DNA from: a virus
Taxonomy: Duplodnaviria; Heunggongvirae; Uroviricota; Caudoviricetes
IMG/VR virus record: IMGVR_UViG_2663763339_000002
Location: 1 to 9,864 of that record
Reading direction: 5' to 3' (one strand)
Length of the DNA: 9,864 bases
Part shown: positions 1,031 to 9,864 of the stretch, piece by piece
How the letters are laid out: every line of letters begins with the position of its first letter
Numbering within the stretch: position 1 is the first letter of the stretch
Notes under the pieces: model-generated
The model's input: only the letters and a program-made list of their open reading frames with translations
Databases searched by the model: none
Told to the model about the DNA's origin: nothing
Translations under genes and position numbers: made by a program

Positions 1031-2947
1031 TCATGCTCCACTCGATTTCAGTAGTCCACGATAATCGAGGGCCGCAACACCTGCATCTATGCGCACCTTC
1101 CAGGCGACACCATCAACAGTAAAGCCCTCCTGCTCCTCGAGATATGGCGTATCAATACCATCAAGATAAGCGACCTCTATCGTGTCCATCCCTTTCGCTG
1201 CGGCTACATACCACTCCTTGTTATTGTTCTTATCAAGACGTGGCTCAACAATAACTTCAGCCATATCTTTCACCACGTTAATGATGCCTGGGTTCTGATT
1301 GATAGTGCCCTCACCATCAACCGGAAAGAGTGATGACGATGACAGAATGGCGCGATGTGCGGCAGACTCCAGCGCGGCGGGGACCAGGACAAATGCGGGG
1401 GTAATATTCAGCGAATCACCGTTAGCGTCCTCCTGGAGGCGCATTAGCTTACGGGCTTCGTTAAGTCCCTCCATGTCCATATCCTTCGCAATAAGATTTT
1501 TATGATCGGCATGGAATAGCGCCTTACCATCCGTGAATTTGCCATTGCCGGTTAACAGGAGATACACCAGATTACCTACTGTTCTGGCGGCTGCACGCCC
1601 CATCGCCATGGGGATTGTAGTTAACTGGGTCAGGTCATCGTTAATAATGGCCTGGCGGGTAACAGAAAAAATATTCCCGTATGTGGCCAGCGCAATAGGT
1701 ACGCCCTTGTCACTGGTAGTAATGTATTTATATTCCGCGCCTTCCGGTACTTTATCCAGTTTTGAAAAACCATTCAGGCCAACGCGTTTTGCCTCGTGAA
1801 AGTTTGAAAGCGATCCGCTACGCGTCCACTTCTGGAACGTTTCGCCGCTGTCCTGCCAGCCTTTCAGCACTGATTTTTCAGCACCGCCAGCCAGAATATG
1901 AGAAAAATCACTGCTGCTGTGTGTAAAAGCTGCATTAACGACCTGCGAACGATTTAAAAAACCGCCAACACTGATACCACGATCGACCAGTGACGCCTGG
2001 GCCATTTCAAAAAGGCTCATCATCGCGTAAGGATTGCCACGCTCAGGACGCTCATACCCAAGACGGGAATAAAGGCCCTGGCGAATCGCATCGCCTGTTA
2101 TGTTCCCGTTTCCGGCATAAATATGAGACGGGATATTTTTATTTGTTGGTGTGTGGTTTTTACCCATTTCGTTAAGCAGACGTTCCCGGGCCATTTCCAG
2201 CGTACAGGATGCATCTTCAAGGCACGACATTTTGATCCCGTCGTACTGGTTGCCGAACACGCTAAAAATTTCTTTAATGCCGTTAATGCGCTCCTGGTCG
2301 CCTGTAATGGTGTTTTTTGCCTGTGATTTCGGCGGGGTAATCATTCCCTTAATGGTTTCCGGCATATGTAAAAAATCTCCTGTGCGTTTCGATTCAATTC
2401 GCGCCATTACTCTGACAGATGGCAACAATTCATCAGCAAAACCGTGCTTAAGGCATTCTTTCCCGTCCATCCAGGTTTCATCTTCCAGCATGGCGGCAAT
2501 TTCCTGTGCTGATTTGCCCGTTTTTCTGGCATAAGCAGGGATTAACACGGTTTCCACTTTATCCAGCAAATCAGCATAATCACGCATATCGCCAGCATTT
2601 CCGCCAGAGATACCCCACGGCTTATGGATCATCATCATGGCGTTCTCCGGCATAACAACGCGATCGCCTGCCATTGCGACGACCGAAGCCATTGAAGCCG
2701 CCACGCCATCGATATAAACCGTAATGTCTGCCGGATGATTCCGTAGCAGGTTATAGATGGCGATGCCTTCAAACACGTCACCGCCAGGCGAATGGATCCG
2801 TAGGTCGATATGTGAAACATCGCCAAGGGCTTTCAGATCTTCCGAGAACTGCTTCGCGGTAATACCGAAGCCGCCAATTTCTTCATAGATGGATATCTCC
2901 ACCGTTCCACGCACATCCGCCGCCTTAATGGAAAACCATGTTTTCAT
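1031..2947 (-). CDS. Prohead maturation protease (ClpP/S49-like) fused to a phage major capsid protein, 638 aa
   Basis: N-terminal about 180 aa carry ClpP-like motifs (IDLRIHSPGG, GVAASMASVVAMAGD, MMMIHKPWG). The C-terminal roughly 400 aa are assigned as major capsid protein by position and overall resemblance, not by a named motif. RBS AGGAG before ATG 2945-2947. Confidence 0.85.
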   Translation of the reverse strand: MKTWFSIKAADVRGTVEISIYEEIGGFGITAKQFSEDLKALGDVSHIDLRIHSPGGDVFEGIAIYNLLRNHPADITVYIDGVAASMASVVAMAGDRVVMPENAMMMIHKPWGISGGNAGDMRDYADLLDKVETVLIPAYARKTGKSAQEIAAMLEDETWMDGKECLKHGFADELLPSVRVMARIESKRTGDFLHMPETIKGMITPPKSQAKNTITGDQERINGIKEIFSVFGNQYDGIKMSCLEDASCTLEMARERLLNEMGKNHTPTNKNIPSHIYAGNGNITGDAIRQGLYSRLGYERPERGNPYAMMSLFEMAQASLVDRGISVGGFLNRSQVVNAAFTHSSSDFSHILAGGAEKSVLKGWQDSGETFQKWTRSGSLSNFHEAKRVGLNGFSKLDKVPEGAEYKYITTSDKGVPIALATYGNIFSVTRQAIINDDLTQLTTIPMAMGRAAARTVGNLVYLLLTGNGKFTDGKALFHADHKNLIAKDMDMEGLNEARKLMRLQEDANGDSLNITPAFVLVPAALESAAHRAILSSSSLFPVDGEGTINQNPGIINVVKDMAEVIVEPRLDKNNNKEWYVAAAKGMDTIEVAYLDGIDTPYLEEQEGFTVDGVAWKVRIDAGVAALDYRGLLKSSGA

Positions 2948-4448: not shown

Positions 4449-5844
4449 GAACATCATCCCCATCGACGCAAATCACGCCGTCTTTTTCCAGTTTGGCTAA
4501 CCATCGTTTAAGGTGTTTTGTGTCATATCCCAGCTTTTTCATGTCATCACGTAGCAGCGGGATCGTACATTTATCACCATGCTGTATACGCGACCGGATA
4601 CAACCCCATAAAGCCGTGTGATTTTCCGTCTTGTTCCCGGCCTCCTCTATGCGCTCCAGTTCAGCAGGGGCGCGGGGAACGTCAATCACCACCATGGACA
4701 CAATCTCTTCGCCATCTGTATCGGTGAACACCTCCACGCTTTTAAGATCGTATGCACTCTCTTTTGGCTCCTCTGCGTCCTTCATCTTCGTACACGCCGC
4801 CACCAGTGCTGTAACCTCTGAATTTTCCCGGCTGATTCGGTACTCTGCATCAAGCGCGGCACGGAATGCGCTGGAACCGCGCGCCCCCTTTGTTTCATCC
4901 TTGCCGGAATGGTGAACCACCAGCACCGTGGCCCCTGTGGCCTGCTTTATCGCGTCACACCCCTGGATAAATGCGCCCATATCGCGGGAATCATTTTCAT
5001 CATTTCCACCAAAGCAACGGGCCAGCGTGTCGATCACAATCAGCCGCACATTTTCGCCCGTTCTGCTCTTAACAAGTCCGGCAGTCCTGATAACCTGCTC
5101 CACATAGTCAGGCGATGCGGGGAAGACAGGCGCGTTAACGATGCACAAATCTGTAACCACCTTGTCATGGGTTATCTCCCACGCCTTAACGCGGCGTTTT
5201 ACGCCTATACTGCCTTCGCCAGCGATATAGATAACAGCGCCCTTACTTACCCTGCGGCCTCCCCATGCCATACCTGTGGCAACATGGCACGACCAGGAAA
5301 TAGCCAGGAACGATTTATAAGAACCGCTGGCCCCGTAGGTGCTGCATAATGACTCAGCCGGAATAAGCCCCTTAATTACGTAGCTTTGCTGCGCGTCGAA
5401 TCCCTCAGAACCCCATGAGATGGGAAGTGTGATTTTTCGCTTTCCACCATTCATGACCAGACTTTCCCCGCGTTCCCAGGTTTCTTTAAGCCGCGGTAGT
5501 TGCTCGCTCCAGTCCTCCAGCAGTTCGAAATTCTCTGAAAGTAACCGTGCTTCCTGGACACCTGCGATCGCCAGTTTGGTGGCAATGGTCAGCATCTGCA
5601 TATCGTCCAGGTTTCCGGCGCGTATGACCTTTGCTCTGTATCGTCCTTCATCAACAATCTGTAAATTGTCCAGTTCGCTTAACTGATAACGGCCCAGGTA
5701 AACCGGAGGGATGGGATCGCCTGCTTTTTGGGCCTGTGCAATCATGTAATGTTCTGCAAAGGAGTGAGCATTATCACCCGCAAAAATAACCGCCTCAGTG
5801 TGTTTATCTTTCGGTAACAGTTTTACGTTCGGTGCCAGTTTCAT
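4438..5844 (-). CDS. Replication initiator, RecA-like (AAA_25-type) ATPase, 468 aa
   Basis: P-loop-like YGASGSYKS, Walker B-like VRLIVIDTL, sensor TVLVVHHSGKD; basic C-terminal region may be a DNA-binding domain. ATG 5842-5844 overlaps the upstream stop. Iterons directly downstream. Confidence 0.8.
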   Translation of the reverse strand: MKLAPNVKLLPKDKHTEAVIFAGDNAHSFAEHYMIAQAQKAGDPIPPVYLGRYQLSELDNLQIVDEGRYRAKVIRAGNLDDMQMLTIATKLAIAGVQEARLLSENFELLEDWSEQLPRLKETWERGESLVMNGGKRKITLPISWGSEGFDAQQSYVIKGLIPAESLCSTYGASGSYKSFLAISWSCHVATGMAWGGRRVSKGAVIYIAGEGSIGVKRRVKAWEITHDKVVTDLCIVNAPVFPASPDYVEQVIRTAGLVKSRTGENVRLIVIDTLARCFGGNDENDSRDMGAFIQGCDAIKQATGATVLVVHHSGKDETKGARGSSAFRAALDAEYRISRENSEVTALVAACTKMKDAEEPKESAYDLKSVEVFTDTDGEEIVSMVVIDVPRAPAELERIEEAGNKTENHTALWGCIRSRIQHGDKCTIPLLRDDMKKLGYDTKHLKRWLAKLEKDGVICVDGDDVHPL

Positions 5845-6155
5845 TTTGCCTTTCCCCGTTCACGAATAATTTCACGTACTGCCTTAATGCGTTCCATACC
5901 TGTAACGCGCATGATTCTGTCGATGTCGCTTAAGTCCGCTGGTGGTGCTTTGCTTACCAGGGTGAATTCACTCTCAAAACGCATATGTGACGACACGCAG
6001 GGATGCGCATAACCTTCGCGGATATATGTCACCCGATAAGCACTCACCGTTTTTACCGTTATCTGACTTCCGTAGTTATCCCGGAAAATATCGCCGGGGC
6101 GGATTTCAGGCCGAGCGGGGCCGCTGGCAGTAAAGCCAGAATTTTTCTTTTTCAT
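5841..6155 (-). CDS. Hypothetical protein, 104 aa
   Basis: ATG 6153-6155 with RBS-like AGAGGAA; coupled to rep by ATGA. Confidence 0.6.
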   Translation of the reverse strand: MKKKNSGFTASGPARPEIRPGDIFRDNYGSQITVKTVSAYRVTYIREGYAHPCVSSHMRFESEFTLVSKAPPADLSDIDRIMRVTGMERIKAVREIIRERGKAK

Positions 6156-6160
6156 GGTTT

Positions 6161-6370
6161 TTATTCCTCTGCGCGGGTCTTGTCGTGTATTTCCATAACC
6201 GCGTTTAATTCATCAATAACCGGGGTTAACAGAGTGCTGAAAGCAGAAAATAAATCCCCCCCCTGTTCGGCATGAACTTCGGTTAATTTAATTAATACCG
6301 CTTTCATTTCCAGTGCCCGGTTTAATGCATTCTCAGAATGAATAAGAACATCGAAAGGGATTTTATCCAT
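6161..6370 (-). CDS. Hypothetical protein, 69 aa
   Basis: ATG 6368-6370 preceded by GGAGGA; stop TAA at 6161-6163. Confidence 0.55.
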   Translation of the reverse strand: MDKIPFDVLIHSENALNRALEMKAVLIKLTEVHAEQGGDLFSAFSTLLTPVIDELNAVMEIHDKTRAEE

Positions 6371-6596
6371 GGCTTACATCCTCCGGGAATTTTCTTCTGT
6401 AACGCGCCTCTGCAACATATTCCGCATAGTCCGACGCAATATTGAGAATCTCCGCACCCTCTGACCTGTAGCCACTGGTACTGATAAGGAAAAATGCGGC
6501 TTTCATCATGCCGGCAACGCATAACAACGCATCGTCTGTATCTTCCGGTGCGCCATCAAATTCCTGTTTCATGGCATTAAAACGATCATCACGCAT
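6363..6596 (-). CDS. Hypothetical protein, about 77 aa (start uncertain; GTG 6612-6614 and ATG 6606-6608 are alternatives)
   Basis: The track ORF begins at a GTG; ATG 6594-6596 is preceded by a G-run that could act as an RBS. Overlaps both neighbouring genes by 8 nt. Confidence 0.45.
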   Translation of the reverse strand: MRDDRFNAMKQEFDGAPEDTDDALLCVAGMMKAAFFLISTSGYRSEGAEILNIASDYAEYVAEARYRRKFPEDVSHG

Positions 6597-6828
6597 AACC
6601 CCCCCCATTTTCACAATCAGTAATCAGGATGGCTTTAGCCTCATTCAGCGCCATATCAGCACTAAGTTGCATTACAGCCAGTGAGTGAGGAACGAAAGCC
6701 CCGGCATATTCTGTTTCAGTGGTGGCGTGCTTATGCGCTTTGTCTGCGATAACAGAAATATCAATCAGCGCATCCATCAGCGTTCTGATAGCTTCGGCGG
6801 CTGCGTCCGGACGGGTGTTATTGCACAT
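6589..6828 (-). CDS. Hypothetical protein, 79 aa
   Basis: ATG 6826-6828 preceded by strong RBS AGGAGG. Confidence 0.55.
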   Translation of the reverse strand: MCNNTRPDAAAEAIRTLMDALIDISVIADKAHKHATTETEYAGAFVPHSLAVMQLSADMALNEAKAILITDCENGGGYA

Positions 6829-7024
6829 GGCGTACCTCCTGACGAATACGGGCGGCGAATACCATCACGCAACCATCAGGAGATTGCTGGCGCGCTTCCT
6901 GTTCGCTGGTGGCCTCAATGGTAATCACGCGCGGTTGTGCCGTGCTCAGGGCGATAAAACGCCAGATGTATTTATTCAGGTTGTACGAGTCCCGCCCTTG
7001 CGGGTGTCTGGTATAATTTCTCAT
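6818..7024 (-). CDS. Hypothetical protein, 68 aa: the C-terminal part of the 354-aa track ORF; the rest of that ORF is judged spurious
   Basis: Internal ATG 7022-7024 preceded by GAGG; the downstream 68 aa have ordinary composition whereas the upstream part is Cys/Ser/Arg-rich and overlaps the plus-strand genes. Confidence 0.35.
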   Translation of the reverse strand: MRNYTRHPQGRDSYNLNKYIWRFIALSTAQPRVITIEATSEQEARQQSPDGCVMVFAARIRQEVRHVQ

Positions 7025-7104
7025 AGCTGCCTCGATACGCTTTCTATCGTTGGTAGTTAGACGCCCTGCATGTGTTGCGAGCACTGCGGGGCGTTGCTCT
7101 TTTA

Positions 7105-7156
7105 GGTGTATTTCACCTCTGCTTTTTAATTTACTCACTGGTGAAATACACTTCAA
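7105..7156. promoter_or_regulatory. Divergent control region: two inverted operator-like copies with a candidate minus-strand promoter
   Basis: GGTGTATTTCACC (7105-7117) and GGTGAAATACAC (7140-7151) are reverse complements and each is internally symmetric (GGTG-N5-CACC). Candidate minus-strand -35 TTGAAG (7151-7156) and -10 TAAATT (7128-7133) with a 17-bp spacer covering the second site. Confidence 0.45.
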
Positions 7157-7217
7157 GCCTTTTTTTATCATTTTTTTTGCGTATACTGACATACACCAAT
7201 TTTTAGGAGATCCAGAA

Positions 7218-7397
7218 ATGGCAACTGGTGCAAAGAACGCAAAATCACAAATGACAACTGTCAGAATCCCACATGAAGTAATGGATGATATTGAGCAACT
7301 TAAAGAACCTGGCGAAAGTACCGCTGGTTTTTTAGTTACTGCCGCAAAAGGCGAGATCAAACGCCGCCAGCGTCGCAAGGCCAAAGAGCAGGAGTAA
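7218..7397 (+). CDS. Small ribbon-helix-helix-like DNA-binding protein, 59 aa (candidate element regulator)
   Basis: ATG 7218-7220 preceded by AGGAGA; TTVRIPHEVMDDIEQL fits a beta-strand-then-helix pattern; basic tail KRRQRRKAKEQE. Fold is inferred, not searched. Confidence 0.6.
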   Translation: MATGAKNAKSQMTTVRIPHEVMDDIEQLKEPGESTAGFLVTAAKGEIKRRQRRKAKEQE

Positions 7398-7454
7398 CCA
7401 TCACCAGCGCCGTGGTGTGAGTAACTACGGCGCATTGCTATGCAGGACAACACA

Positions 7455-7628
7455 ATGACCGATAAAGAATTGACCAAAACATTATCACCGACACGGAAAA
7501 GACGGCGCAGAAAGATAGAGCATGAATCAGAAAGATTCGCGCCATGTGCTTTTGCCCTTGAGCAATTCCTTAAAGAGTACAGGGAAAAGCGCTCATTGCA
7601 GGTATGGCAACGAACTGAACCAGACTGA
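7455..7628 (+). CDS. Small basic hypothetical protein, 57 aa
   Basis: ATG 7455-7457 with AGGA 7 nt upstream (alternative ATG at 7440); RKRRRRK stretch; followed by a plus-strand terminator. Confidence 0.4.
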   Translation: MTDKELTKTLSPTRKRRRRKIEHESERFAPCAFALEQFLKEYREKRSLQVWQRTEPD

Positions 7629-7707
7629 TTGCATTGCCCACCAGCCGCAAATGTGGCATTGTTGGCGATGCTCATGCGTTGGGGATAACGCGAAATTTGT
7701 GTCGCAG

Positions 7708-7736
7708 GGCCACCGTGACTGGTGGCCTTTTCTTTG
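7708..7736 (+). terminator. Intrinsic terminator ending the plus-strand two-gene unit
   Basis: Perfect 7-bp stem GGCCACC / GGTGGCC with a 6-nt loop, followed by TTTTCTTTG. Confidence 0.6.
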
Positions 7737-7773
7737 CCTGTTATCCGGCAATAGTGGCGCTTCTTCACACAGT

Positions 7774-7856
7774 TGATATAATTCCCCTGCACTGATCCAA
7801 TTTTTTCGCAGCAGGTTAATTGTTCGCAAGGGCGCTCCGGTAACGGGGCGCTTTTT
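7774..7856 (+). ncRNA. Candidate small RNA unit: extended -10 promoter plus intrinsic terminator with no ORF between
   Basis: TGaTATAAT at 7774-7782; hairpin GCGCTCC-GGTAAC-GGGGCGC (7832-7851) followed by TTTTT; no ATG or GTG between. Convergent with the 3' end of alpA. Confidence 0.25.
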
Positions 7857-7886
7857 GTTATGTGCATCGCGTTACGCCTCACACCA

Positions 7887-8093
7887 TTACGCAGCCGTTC
7901 CGCGCGCTTCTTCCTCGCGCTCTTTCAGCCAGGCCAGCACTTCATCTTCATACCAGCCAACACGACGCAGACCGATTTTGAAGCCTTTCGGGAATTTTCC
8001 GGCGTTGATCATGTCCTGTAGCGAACTGTCTGCCTTGATGCGCAGAATATTTTTTACTTCCTGACGGGTAAGTATTTTTCTGATTGTTTCCAC
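7887..8093 (-). CDS. alpA: AlpA-family phage transcriptional regulator, 68 aa
   Basis: GTG start at 8091-8093 (no in-frame ATG covers the HTH). FPKGFKIGLRRVGWYEDEVLAWL matches the AlpA signature recalled from E. coli CP4-57 AlpA (VGWIEAEIDEWL). Confidence 0.8.
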   Translation of the reverse strand: METIRKILTRQEVKNILRIKADSSLQDMINAGKFPKGFKIGLRRVGWYEDEVLAWLKEREEEARGTAA

Positions 8094-8162
8094 TATGTTT
8101 TACCTCGTTAATCCGGCGTATTCCGGTGATAAATACGGTAAAACAGGGCAGGGCGGGAAAAA

Positions 8163-8194
8163 CAGTACCCACCGTTTTAAAACGGTACTCACTG
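8163..8194. promoter_or_regulatory. Palindromic operator-like site upstream of alpA
   Basis: Perfect 16-bp palindrome ACCGTTTTAAAACGGT (8171-8186) inside a larger imperfect dyad CAGTAC...GTACTCACTG. Confidence 0.4.
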
Positions 8195-8228
8195 TTTTTT
8201 ATCTCATTGATTACGCTTTTCTTTCTGC

Positions 8229-8258
8229 AAAAAAATAGCGACCGCAAGGGGCCGCTAT
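8229..8258 (-). terminator. Intrinsic terminator after the 80-aa ORF
   Basis: Minus-strand RNA forms an AUAGCGGCC...GGUCGCUAU hairpin followed by U7 (plus-strand A7 at 8229-8235), 5 nt after the stop at 8264-8266. Confidence 0.5.
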
Positions 8259-8263
8259 TGTGA

Positions 8264-8506
8264 TTACCGTTTCCACTTCTTAGGCCGCCCACCGCATTTA
8301 AGGCTGGTGGGTCTCAGCACCTTGTCGATGCTTTCAGCCAGGTTTTTCGATGCGCCACGTGAGCGCAAAAAACTGACTACCTCGTGTTTTGTGGGGGCTG
8401 TTGATTTGTCTTCCGGATCGTATGTTGACCAGAATTCACGATTTGCCATTAACGCCAGTTGCAGCCCTTCGCCGCAAGCAGGGGATACCTTTTCATTGAA
8501 AAACAC
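8264..8506 (-). CDS. Hypothetical protein, 80 aa, between integrase and alpA; basic C-terminus GRPKKWKR
   Basis: GTG start at 8504-8506 with AAGGAG 8 nt upstream (alternative ATG at 8447-8449 has no RBS); own terminator downstream. Confidence 0.5.
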   Translation of the reverse strand: MFFNEKVSPACGEGLQLALMANREFWSTYDPEDKSTAPTKHEVVSFLRSRGASKNLAESIDKVLRPTSLKCGGRPKKWKR

Positions 8507-8622
8507 CTGGATAGCTCCTTGAATTTCATGATTTGGGTGACTCCTCTCTGTATTGGGTGGGTTGTGGCGATTATACGATGGTTTAGCATGGTTTGCATCG
8601 CTTTTACTGGTTTTTTGTACAG

Positions 8623-9864
8623 TTACACGGCACGGATACCCCTTTTACCACTGGCTATGGTCACTCCGGTAGCTGCGGCCTCTACAAATTCCCCCCACCA
8701 GCGCATAAGCACCACGCGCTTTTCCAGGTAGTTACTTCGGTTATATGCTCGCCTTACCTCGTTTGTGTCCACGTGTGCGAGTGCGGCCTCGATTACGTCC
8801 GGCTCGAATCCTTCCTCGTTCGCTGCTGTACTGAATATGGCGCGTAATCCGTGAGACACCAGCACACCAGCGTAACCCATCCGGCGCAATGCGGCGTTAG
8901 CGGTCTGGCTGCTCATTGGCAGCATCGGGTTTTTAAGGCTGGGAAAAACGTGTTCCCTGTGTGCGCTGATTGGCTTCATGGTTTCCAGTACAGCCATAGC
9001 CTGACCGCAAAGGGGGATCACGTGGTCACGGCGCATCTTCATGCGTCCGGCTGGAATCGTCCATGTTTCGGCATCGAGATCTATTTCTTCCCAGCGTGCG
9101 GCGGCTGCTTCGGCTGGGCGTGCTACGGTCAGCAGTTGCCACTCAATCAGCAATCTGGTTTGCCGTTCTATGCTGGCGACCGATAAATCGTGCATTAGCT
9201 GCGGTAGCTGTTCCGGTCGGATGGTTGGCATGTGCTTTTTGGTGGGTGAGGGGAATGCCTTGCGGACGTTCGCGGCGGTGTTGATGTCAATCAGCCCACT
9301 GTTGGCAGCAAAATCCATCACTTCATTGATGCGTTGTAAAACGCGTTTCAGGGTTTCCAGGTTGCCGCGTGCTTTAATGGGTGTGAGTATCTCAACAAAG
9401 CGGCGAGCTGTGAGGGTATCTATTGGCGTGTTTCCGATGTACGGGAATACGTATTTTTCCAGGGATCGCCAGATATCCTTAATCGTGTTGTAAGCCAGAT
9501 TCTGGCCTTTTTTCATCTCGTACCAGTCCGAGGCAACTTTTTCGAACGTGTTGCCCTTTTTCCGACTCTCTGCTTCACGTTTCCGGCGTTCGTGGTCCTG
9601 TGGGTCAACTCCCTTCGCTATGAGTGACCTGTATTCATTCCGTCGTTCTCTGGCATCGGACAGGGAAACATCATTCAGCGATCCGAGGCTGATGATAGTC
9701 CGTTTTTTATCTGCCGGGCGGTAGTACGTAAAACGCCAGATTTTTGATCCGGAGGGTTTCACCAGAAGAAATAATCCTCCGCCATCCTGCAGGGTGTATT
9801 CCTTTTCCCCTGGTCGTGCGTTTTTGATCTCCGTAATAGTTAGTGGGGTGGTTTTTCGTGCCAT
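8623..9864 (-). CDS. int: Tyrosine site-specific integrase, P4 / CP4-57 IntA family, 413 aa
   Basis: N-terminus MARKTTPLTITEIKNARPGEKEYTLQDGGGLFLLVKPSGSKIWRFTYY is the typical arm-binding domain of P4-type integrases; catalytic-region motifs (TVARP, HGLRAIF, RAYNRSNY). ATG is the last 3 nt of the window. Confidence 0.9.
   Translation of the reverse strand: MARKTTPLTITEIKNARPGEKEYTLQDGGGLFLLVKPSGSKIWRFTYYRPADKKRTIISLGSLNDVSLSDARERRNEYRSLIAKGVDPQDHERRKREAESRKKGNTFEKVASDWYEMKKGQNLAYNTIKDIWRSLEKYVFPYIGNTPIDTLTARRFVEILTPIKARGNLETLKRVLQRINEVMDFAANSGLIDINTAANVRKAFPSPTKKHMPTIRPEQLPQLMHDLSVASIERQTRLLIEWQLLTVARPAEAAAARWEEIDLDAETWTIPAGRMKMRRDHVIPLCGQAMAVLETMKPISAHREHVFPSLKNPMLPMSSQTANAALRRMGYAGVLVSHGLRAIFSTAANEEGFEPDVIEAALAHVDTNEVRRAYNRSNYLEKRVVLMRWWGEFVEAAATGVTIASGKRGIRAV

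Follow-up and report, generated by a model that had tools for sequence, protein, structure and literature searches.

Five conserved small genes upstream of rep in an Escherichia coli phage satellite and their length-variable homopolymer tracts

Introduction

In phage-inducible chromosomal islands (PICIs) of the EcCICFT073 type, helper phages induce alpA, whose product activates the alpA promoter as well as a fusion to a downstream open reading frame (ORF), and the small ORFs have been left hypothetical (Fillol-Salom et al. 2018, PMC6092414). The subject of this study is a row of five small ORFs in a stretch of 9,864 nucleotides (nt) of IMG/VR virus record IMGVR_UViG_2663763339_000002, hereafter the window, which is a PICI-type E. 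coli phage satellite of about 10 kb at tRNA-Pro. The window shares with EcCICFT073-type islands the order int - alpA - small ORFs - pri/rep - packaging genes, the size of about 10 kb and a chromosomal attachment (att) site (PMC6092414); unlike them, it encodes a RepA-type helicase that lacks a primase domain, a fusion of ClpP-like protease and capsid protein, and a DUF1441 protein. The cassette formed by the five ORFs lies between helper-induced AlpA and the replication gene, which is the least understood stage of Gram-negative PICI biology.

In P4, translation of the leader controls Rho-dependent termination and Cnr regulates alpha. Simple-sequence contingency loci are exemplified by the poly-G tracts of Neisseria, Haemophilus and Campylobacter and are unusual in E. 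coli. The record of phage P1 describes Icd as an inhibitor of cell division that is "apparently required for expression of ant", and the P1 gene after icd yields two overlapping products, Ant1 and Ant2, that act as a complex (PMC8546580). In E. coli ECOR61, the phage gene orf24, a T7-like accessory gene, triggers cell death; suppressor insertions were located in an Icd-like gene and in the pair of small hypothetical genes that follow it with overlapping coordinates (Silas et al. 2023, bioRxiv 10.1101/2023.04.06.535777). All six linked genes including the primase are needed for this cell death, removal of the Icd-like gene abolishes the effect, and reconstitution in a laboratory strain was weak (bioRxiv 10.1101/2023.04.06.535777).

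Results

The five ORFs form a conserved chain that ends in rep

We read the five ORFs as a conserved early-gene cassette of an AlpA-type E. coli satellite of the PICI family, a translationally chained unit ending in rep, and put the probability of this reading at about one half. The chain and its two ends are as follows.

8093-7887, minus strand: alpA-type helix-turn-helix regulator (PF05930 at 4.5e-8), upstream end of the chain
7024-6818, minus strand: ORF1, Icd-like, 68 amino acids (aa); GAGG 5 nt before the ATG
6828-6589, minus strand: ORF2, 79 aa; AGGAGG 7 nt upstream; phrog_5146, or the N-terminal half of phrog_2512
6596-6363, minus strand: ORF3, 77 aa from the ATG, 83 aa from GTG 6614; phrog_24341, or the C-terminal half of phrog_2512
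6370-6161, minus strand: ORF4, 69 aa, intact in the window; GGAGG upstream; helical; phrog_2196 at 9e-8 over the full length
6155-5841, minus strand: ORF5, DUF4222, 104 aa; GAGGA upstream
5844-4438, minus strand: rep, RepA-family (AAA_25) helicase, 468 aa, downstream end of the chain

A first-pass annotation of the window, made from the letters alone, had noted five tightly packed ORFs of 68, 79, about 77, 69 and 104 aa, mostly with good ribosome-binding sites, at the head of the replication operon directly upstream of rep, and this arrangement was confirmed. ORF1 and ORF2 overlap by 11 nt, ORF2 and ORF3 by 8 nt and ORF3 and ORF4 by 8 nt; ORF4 and ORF5 are separated by a 5-nt gap, and ORF5 overlaps rep by 4 nt (ATGA). 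A purine-rich ribosome-binding sequence precedes each of ORF1-ORF5, seen as GAGG, AGGAGG, GGAGG and GAGGA upstream of ORF1, ORF2, ORF4 and ORF5, respectively.

Coding was tested through the substitution rate by codon position among relatives. The rates at positions 1/2/3 were 0.062/0.068/0.113 for ORF1, 0.100/0.103/0.248 for ORF2, 0.157/0.133/0.304 for ORF3 and 0.056/0.048/0.094 for ORF5, and substitutions in ORF4 were too scarce for the test. The third-position excess, together with the recurrence of the ordered cassette across loci, places the chain beyond chance, and all five ORFs are conserved genes. The 68-aa and 77-aa ORFs (ORF1 and ORF3) had been considered the least certain, a ranking that was overturned, as both are well supported by the third-position pattern. 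ORF4 is the least secure of the five because its substitutions are few and seven of 12 distinct relatives are frameshifted.

The five genes were found in this order in 80 IMG/VR loci and also in E. coli genomes of RefSeq. The integrase, the att site and the replication protein vary, the last being a RepA helicase, a primase-family protein or a DUF927 protein. The block at the ORF2/ORF3 junction was found in 737 of 5,426 complete E. coli genomes, or about one in seven, O157:H7 and Nissle 1917 among them. A 1,260-nt query that spans ORF1-ORF5 (window 5841-7100) matched strain RM8082 at 1,259 of 1,260 bases (99.9% identity). The phage collection gave no match by blastn and, by tblastn with the five concatenated proteins, a single weak match to the Icd region (vB_KppS-Ant). 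The cassette as a sequence is already known and annotated in many hundreds of E. coli genomes, so the earlier suggestion of an undescribed small-protein system stands for the functions of the proteins and falls for the sequence.

A poly-G tract joins or separates ORF2 and ORF3, the halves of one family

ORF2 and ORF3 had been counted as separate genes. They are not independent, since in PHROGs they match the two halves of phrog_2512, a 154-residue profile of which ORF2 covers positions 1-76 and ORF3 positions 73-153. In other E. coli, ORF2 and ORF3 occur with 100% identity as a fused protein of 154 aa (P0001). When 1.84 billion representative proteins were searched exhaustively with a profile, only 62 relatives were returned, most of which are stand-alone N-halves or stand-alone C-halves; the latter begin at profile position 78, which corresponds to the ORF3 methionine, and the same 77-aa ORF3 gene is annotated by the Prokaryotic Genome Annotation Pipeline (PGAP). 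Species-representative genomes contained one further locus only, in Escherichia ruysiae, therefore the family hardly extends beyond Escherichia. ORF2 and ORF3 represent the two halves of a single narrow helical family.

The junction holds two features.

6599-6606, minus strand: poly-G tract 1, G8 in the window
6545-6630, minus strand: invariant block of about 85 nt around tract 1, with the start codon (ATG) of ORF3 and, in the +1 frame, a double stop (TGATGA)

Tract 1 sits in otherwise constant sequence, GATTGTGAAAATG(n)TTATGCGTGATGATCGTTTTAAT, and its length sets the frame. With G7, G10 or G4, ORF2 and ORF3 are fused; with G8 or G11, ORF2 enters the TGA-TGA double stop that overlaps the ORF3 ATG, and the two are split; with G9, ORF2 continues in the third frame and they are again split. 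Among 76 distinct IMG/VR contexts, 17 had G7, 29 G8, 17 G9, four G10 and two G11, and seven had an interrupted run. Exact matches to the G7, G8 and G9 states in the 737 complete genomes with the block numbered 383, 204 and 182, respectively. Seven of nine pairs of loci with at most four substitutions in the 800-nt flank differed in tract-1 length, one of them by two bases (G7 versus G9), indicating that tract 1 changes far faster than ordinary sites and that sequencing error is insufficient to explain the differences.

The ORF3 ATG and the TGATGA stops are invariant in every tract-1 state. Synonymous variation is absent from the block, that is, from the last approximately eight codons of ORF2 and the first approximately 15 codons of ORF3, and the codons outside vary freely. 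The identities of ORF2 and ORF3 vary independently between loci, thus the block may also be a recombination linker.

Variant arrangements of the family were also seen. In some loci (L061, L064, L066 and others), about 366 nt with another small gene lie between the ORF2-like and ORF3-like genes, and in two proteins (P0365 and P0420) family halves are joined to a different small domain (GR.T.YVE.G...), which shows that small modules shuffle freely within the cassette. One protein of 844 aa (P0373) consists of 14 near-identical repeats of about 58 aa with a weak match to the ORF3 C-terminal motif and is probably an assembly or tandem-repeat oddity.

Homopolymer runs recur in the ORF4 slot

A second run lies inside ORF4.

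6263-6256, minus strand: poly-G tract 2, G8

Relatives have G5, G7, G8 or G9 at this place, which yields a 69-aa product or products truncated to 47 or 52 aa. Of the 12 distinct relatives with ORF4 of the window type, five encode an intact protein of 68-69 aa. The other seven are frameshifted at the run, with products of 47 or 52 aa, and in these alleles both halves are still 92-97% conserved. A divergent intact ORF4 homologue exists without the tract. In RM8082, tract 2 is G7 and gives the 47-aa product, which explains the one-base length difference in the 1,260-nt query.

Slot 4, defined as the variable position between ORF3 and the DUF4222 gene, holds other alleles as well. In the 66-aa type, which carries a T7-T9 run, four of the 14 distinct sequences are frameshifted at the run. 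Most sequences of the 77-aa type lack a long run; 51 of 53 are intact, and the sole tract-associated frameshift of this type is at an A8 run. Examples of the T- and A-run alleles are L064, L077, L136, L025 and L057. Because these alleles are frameshifted exactly at the run, the homopolymer pattern extends beyond the allele present in the window. The two G8 runs in the window are not significant alone (0.37 expected; at least two matches in 17 of 200 shuffles), and the argument for the tracts is carried by the comparative data rather than by the run count.

ORF1 is Icd-like and follows a stop-free leader

ORF1 scored 70.3 bits (cutoff 25; E 1e-19) against NCBIfam NF033153, on which P1 Icd itself scores 52.6 bits, and BLASTP aligned ORF1 with P1 Icd at 35% identity over 49 aa (E 7e-8). 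Its Shine-Dalgarno sequence and ATG are conserved among relatives, and as in the icd layout it is the first gene of the operon and overlaps the next. Judged from these matches, ORF1 is a true homologue of phage P1 Icd. The first-pass annotation had recognised no domain in any of the five proteins, which proved right for ORF2-3, with no relative of known function, and wrong for ORF1 and ORF5 (NF033153 and DUF4222).

The region between alpA and ORF1, a stretch of about 0.85 kb that carries ylcI, contains the following.

7025-7882, minus strand: stop-free leader in the ORF1 frame, with GTG 7882 and ATG 7867, starting 4 nt past the alpA stop
7218-7397, plus strand: ylcI/ynfO-family gene (NF041551 at 9e-18; PGAP annotation), divergent from ORF1 and antisense within the leader
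7101-7156, ylcI/ORF1 intergenic region: 17-nt inverted repeat with a 22-nt spacer, flanking a weak minus-strand TTGAAG-17-TAAATT promoter-like site

The ORF1 frame is open for 354 codons counted from GTG 7882, of which about 300 lie upstream of ORF1 and run antisense through ylcI. In 45 distinct loci, the 300 codons upstream of ORF1 contained on average 3.4 stops in the ORF1 frame versus 16.7 and 16.9 in the other two frames, and at least 150 codons directly upstream were open in 87% of them. The start of the open frame adjoins or overlaps the upstream AlpA-type gene in most loci. Codon-position rates in two leader segments free of overlap with plus-strand genes were 0.248/0.236/0.236 (7217-7025) and 0.139/0.103/0.082 (7882-7629), with no third-position bias. 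The scarcity of stops and the missing third-position bias together indicate that the leader frame is kept stop-free without protein-like constraint. The long ORF gave no match to Pfam Ash.

The ylcI gene shows a strong third-position substitution pattern. By eye, the N-terminus of YlcI (TTVRIPHEVMDDIEQL) resembles a ribbon-helix-helix DNA binder, and YlcI may be an island repressor; neither PDB nor Pfam lent support to this resemblance, and PDB sequence searches with ORF1, ORF2-3, ORF5 and YlcI gave no meaningful match. The TTGAAG-17-TAAATT site is a weak match picked by eye, and a consensus sigma-70 promoter scan of 5700-8700 found none. Downstream of ylcI and in the same phase lies a plus-strand ORF of 62 aa (7440-7628), followed by two plus-strand terminator-like hairpins (7706-7729 and 7828-7855) facing alpA. 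This arrangement suggests a small transcription unit that is both convergent with the alpA-to-icd leader and antisense to it.

ORF5 precedes replication genes of several types

ORF5 matched PF13973 (DUF4222) over residues 16-67 with 64.1 bits (threshold 27), and PF13973 is present in all listed ORF5 homologues. An AlphaFold2 model built on a 36-sequence alignment shows a confident five-stranded small barrel (predicted local distance difference test score, pLDDT, about 90) followed by C-terminal helices; the barrel is modelled as Tudor/KOW/SH3-like. The stop of the DUF4222 gene overlaps the start of the next long ORF (ATGA) in 147 of 156 loci, and in Kosakonia a DUF4222 gene is likewise found upstream of a D5-type primase-helicase. 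The same overlap ahead of RepA-type and D5-type genes ties ORF5 to replication initiators of unrelated types. Co-variation of the ORF5 C-terminal tail with the type of Rep was considered and rejected, since the same 104-aa type precedes RepA helicase, primase-family, DUF927 and D5-type proteins.

Island context

The satellite context proposed in the first-pass annotation was borne out by int, alpA, rep, ssb, the capsid-protease fusion and DUF1441 at tRNA-Pro. The further island genes, like the chain on the minus strand, are these.

9864-8623, minus strand: integrase, 413 aa, intact in the window
between integrase and alpA, minus strand: small ORF
downstream of rep, minus strand: small ORF, then ssb
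1031-2947, minus strand: ClpP-like prohead protease/major capsid fusion, 638 aa
288-830, minus strand: DUF1441 protein

The order int - alpA - replication gene - packaging genes, co-oriented within about 10 kb at a chromosomal att site, is that of PICIs of the EcCI type. Portal and large terminase are not encoded within the window. In RM8082, the island of about 10 kb is located between tRNA-Pro/yejM and yejO; its integrase is annotated as frameshifted (L001 6238-7478) and is intact in the window (8623-9864), either a real difference or an assembly indel error. In the probiotic strain Nissle 1917, the tRNA-Pro/yejM site is likewise occupied by a related island (L174, NZ_CP022686.1 937780-948000), with tract 1 in the split G8 state, an additional small gene after icd and a primase-family Rep. 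The O157:H7 and Nissle 1917 islands have a separate major capsid protein, a head-decoration protein and a small terminase instead of the capsid fusion.

Discussion

In the reading that we prefer, a helper phage would induce alpA, and transcription would proceed from alpA across the leader into ORF1. The leader is probably translated, with ribosomes following RNA polymerase from alpA to icd, and stop/start coupling would then carry translation from ORF1 on to rep. By analogy with Icd, ORF1 could act as a growth-arrest or cell-division effector. ORF2 and ORF3 probably act as one physical unit, because the halves occur fused in some genomes, and this unit would most likely be directed at the helper phage or the host, as its position is that of P1 Ant1/Ant2 and P4 epsilon. 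ORF5 may be an accessory of replication initiation, and the tracts would create heritable variants of the cassette within a lineage. The earlier remark that this operon position is typical of helper derepression agrees with the matching places of P4 epsilon and P1 icd-ant, and a helper-interference or anti-defence role of the cassette is plausible, with a literature precedent in ECOR61.

Several observations weigh against this reading. All three tract-1 states are common, which fits neutrality as well as adaptive switching. The functional roles given to the cassette proteins are read from sequence, and the likeness of the ECOR61 small genes to ORF2-4 lies in gene organisation. Structure prediction gave for ORF2-3 an all-helical AlphaFold2 model of low confidence (pLDDT 65), its ORF2 part a helical hairpin, and Foldseek against the PDB matched this model to generic helical bundles only (E > 0.8; template modelling score, TM, < 0.4). 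Profile, PDB, Foldseek and PADLOC searches detected no relative of known function for ORF2-3. A fold like that of DUF4222 is common among small phage proteins. Rfam searches of the whole window at E<=1 and of 6950-7950 at E<=10 detected no antisense RNA of the C4/CI type, the matches being terminator-hairpin noise only. The leader shows no protein-like constraint, and in some loci, such as L002 and L007, its frame closes less than about 150 codons upstream. No sequence homology was detected to P1 Ant or to epsilon, orf151 and cnr of P4; the parallels to these systems are positional only.

It is possible, if on the unlikely side, that the tracts are neutral mutational hot spots, the G-run being kept as a Shine-Dalgarno-like element and as a Gly-Gly linker for ORF3. 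The fused and split forms would then be equivalent, a frameshifted ORF4 would be a decaying dispensable gene, and the cassette would consist of ordinary early accessory genes. Such neutrality agrees with the finding that all three frames are common, none is dominant and their proportions vary between samples, with the retention of the ORF3 ATG in every state and with the insignificant number of G8 runs in the window (17/200 shuffles). It also agrees with slot 4, where alleles without long runs are intact in 51/53, hence frameshifts track the presence of a run. It is harder to reconcile with the rarity of easy synonymous breaks of the tract, as only seven of 76 contexts are interrupted. Nor would neutrality lead one to expect that the tract lies within a block of about 85 nt without synonymous variation when neighbouring codons are free, that the halves of frameshifted ORF4 stay 92-97% conserved, or that each of three different slot-4 alleles has a run of its own, of G, T or A, and variants that are frameshifted there.

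The cassette might instead be primarily an abortive-infection or superinfection-exclusion device, which we regard as doubtful. A toxic Icd-like effector would be restrained or activated by the small proteins, and disturbance of the operon by a protein of an invading phage would set the device off, as has been reported for ECOR61 (bioRxiv 10.1101/2023.04.06.535777). This precedent has a matching gene order and matching overlaps, and homopolymer switches typify costly or toxic functions. However, the ECOR61 small ORFs (61 and 63 aa) differ in size from ORF2-4, the reconstitution in a laboratory strain was weak, and the cassette is tied to a replication gene in every locus, suggesting a role in the life cycle. 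None of the five proteins matched a defence-protein model of PADLOC-DB v2 at E<=0.1, nor did the fused ORF2-ORF3 form, Rep, YlcI or the long ORF.

A bolder combination, which we consider decidedly unlikely, would have the homopolymer switches stochastically rewire the cassette within a lineage and the stop-free leader gate induction. If this were true, ORF2-ORF3 would be made as one or two proteins and the slot-4 gene turned on or off, and the switches would hedge spread of the satellite versus a costly or toxic growth-arrest (abortive-infection) activity. The leader of about 0.9 kb would be stop-free only for ribosome-polymerase coupling across the antisense ylcI gene, shielding the transcript from Rho, and translation of a sequence without protein function would thereby gate induction of the satellite.

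It is very unlikely that fused and split forms are both made from any allele by programmed frameshifting or transcriptional slippage, with the tract length tuning their ratio. G-runs are shift-prone, the flanking block is nucleotide-invariant, and the overlapping products Ant1 and Ant2 of P1 act as a complex (PMC8546580). The slippery G-run is, however, not accompanied by a stable structure around or downstream of it (no significant fold; z-scores 0.08, -0.12 and 0.44), and the invariant block offers no covariation to assess. Furthermore, the required shift would depend on the allele (+1 for G8, -1 for G9), and most stand-alone members of the family are simply separate genes.

Errors of sequencing or assembly in homopolymers, with split and truncated ORFs as artefacts, can hardly be credited as the source of the length differences. 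Even though RM8082 is one base shorter at the ORF4 tract (G7 versus G8) and its assembly also has a frameshifted integrase, hinting at indel errors, tract-1 lengths span G4 to G12 with interrupted runs included, G7, G8 and G9 are each found exactly in 182-383 of the 737 complete genomes, near-identical loci are two bases apart (G7 versus G9), and the flanking code works in all three frames.

In the literature searched, no relevant report of poly-G phase variation in E. coli satellites was found, and three features appear to be new there, namely the tract that fuses or splits ORF2 and ORF3, homopolymer switching in slot 4 and the stop-free leader in the Icd-like frame. If the tracts are true switches, they would constitute a simple-sequence contingency system in an E. 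coli phage satellite, of which no report was found in the literature available. An operon of similar organisation has been linked experimentally to phage-triggered cell death in ECOR61.

Compared with the P1 immI operon (c4 RNA - icd - ant1/ant2), the window likewise has an icd gene that heads the operon and overlaps the next gene, by 11 nt versus 4 nt in P1. Unlike in P1, no C4-type RNA or target sites were detected in the window, the downstream genes show no relation to Ant, a replication helicase closes the operon, and the frame of ORF1 is open for about 300 codons upstream.

The window also resembles the left operon of P4 (vis - cI/ash region - epsilon - orf151 - cnr - alpha) in its AlpA/Vis-type regulator, a leader or immunity region that bears a long annotated ORF, small ORFs that overlap by 8 nt and a gene of about 105 aa directly before the primase-helicase. 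P4 epsilon, of the helper derepressor family PF25738, holds the slot equivalent to that of the small ORFs, and the P4 leader ORF, unlike that of the window, belongs to the Ash family. None of the five window proteins matched PF25738 or DUF5375. Two candidate equivalences were rejected: hhalign gave a probability of 2% for ORF2-3 (A1) versus P4 orf151, and ORF5 did not align with P4 cnr by BLASTP, cnr being DUF5375 and not DUF4222.

Like the ECOR61 locus, the window has an Icd-like gene, which in ECOR61 carries an N-terminal extension, followed by small overlapping genes and, in ECOR61, a primase, a likeness of organisation. The small ORFs of ECOR61, unlike those of the window, are 61 and 63 aa long, and homopolymer tracts go unreported there.

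Finally, both tracts of the window resemble contingency loci in being homopolymers within coding sequence whose length varies among close relatives and changes the frame, a likeness that is known here from sequence polymorphism between strains. Unlike the known contingency loci, they are carried by an E. coli phage satellite, and tract 1 would not turn a protein off but turns one fused protein into two coupled ones.

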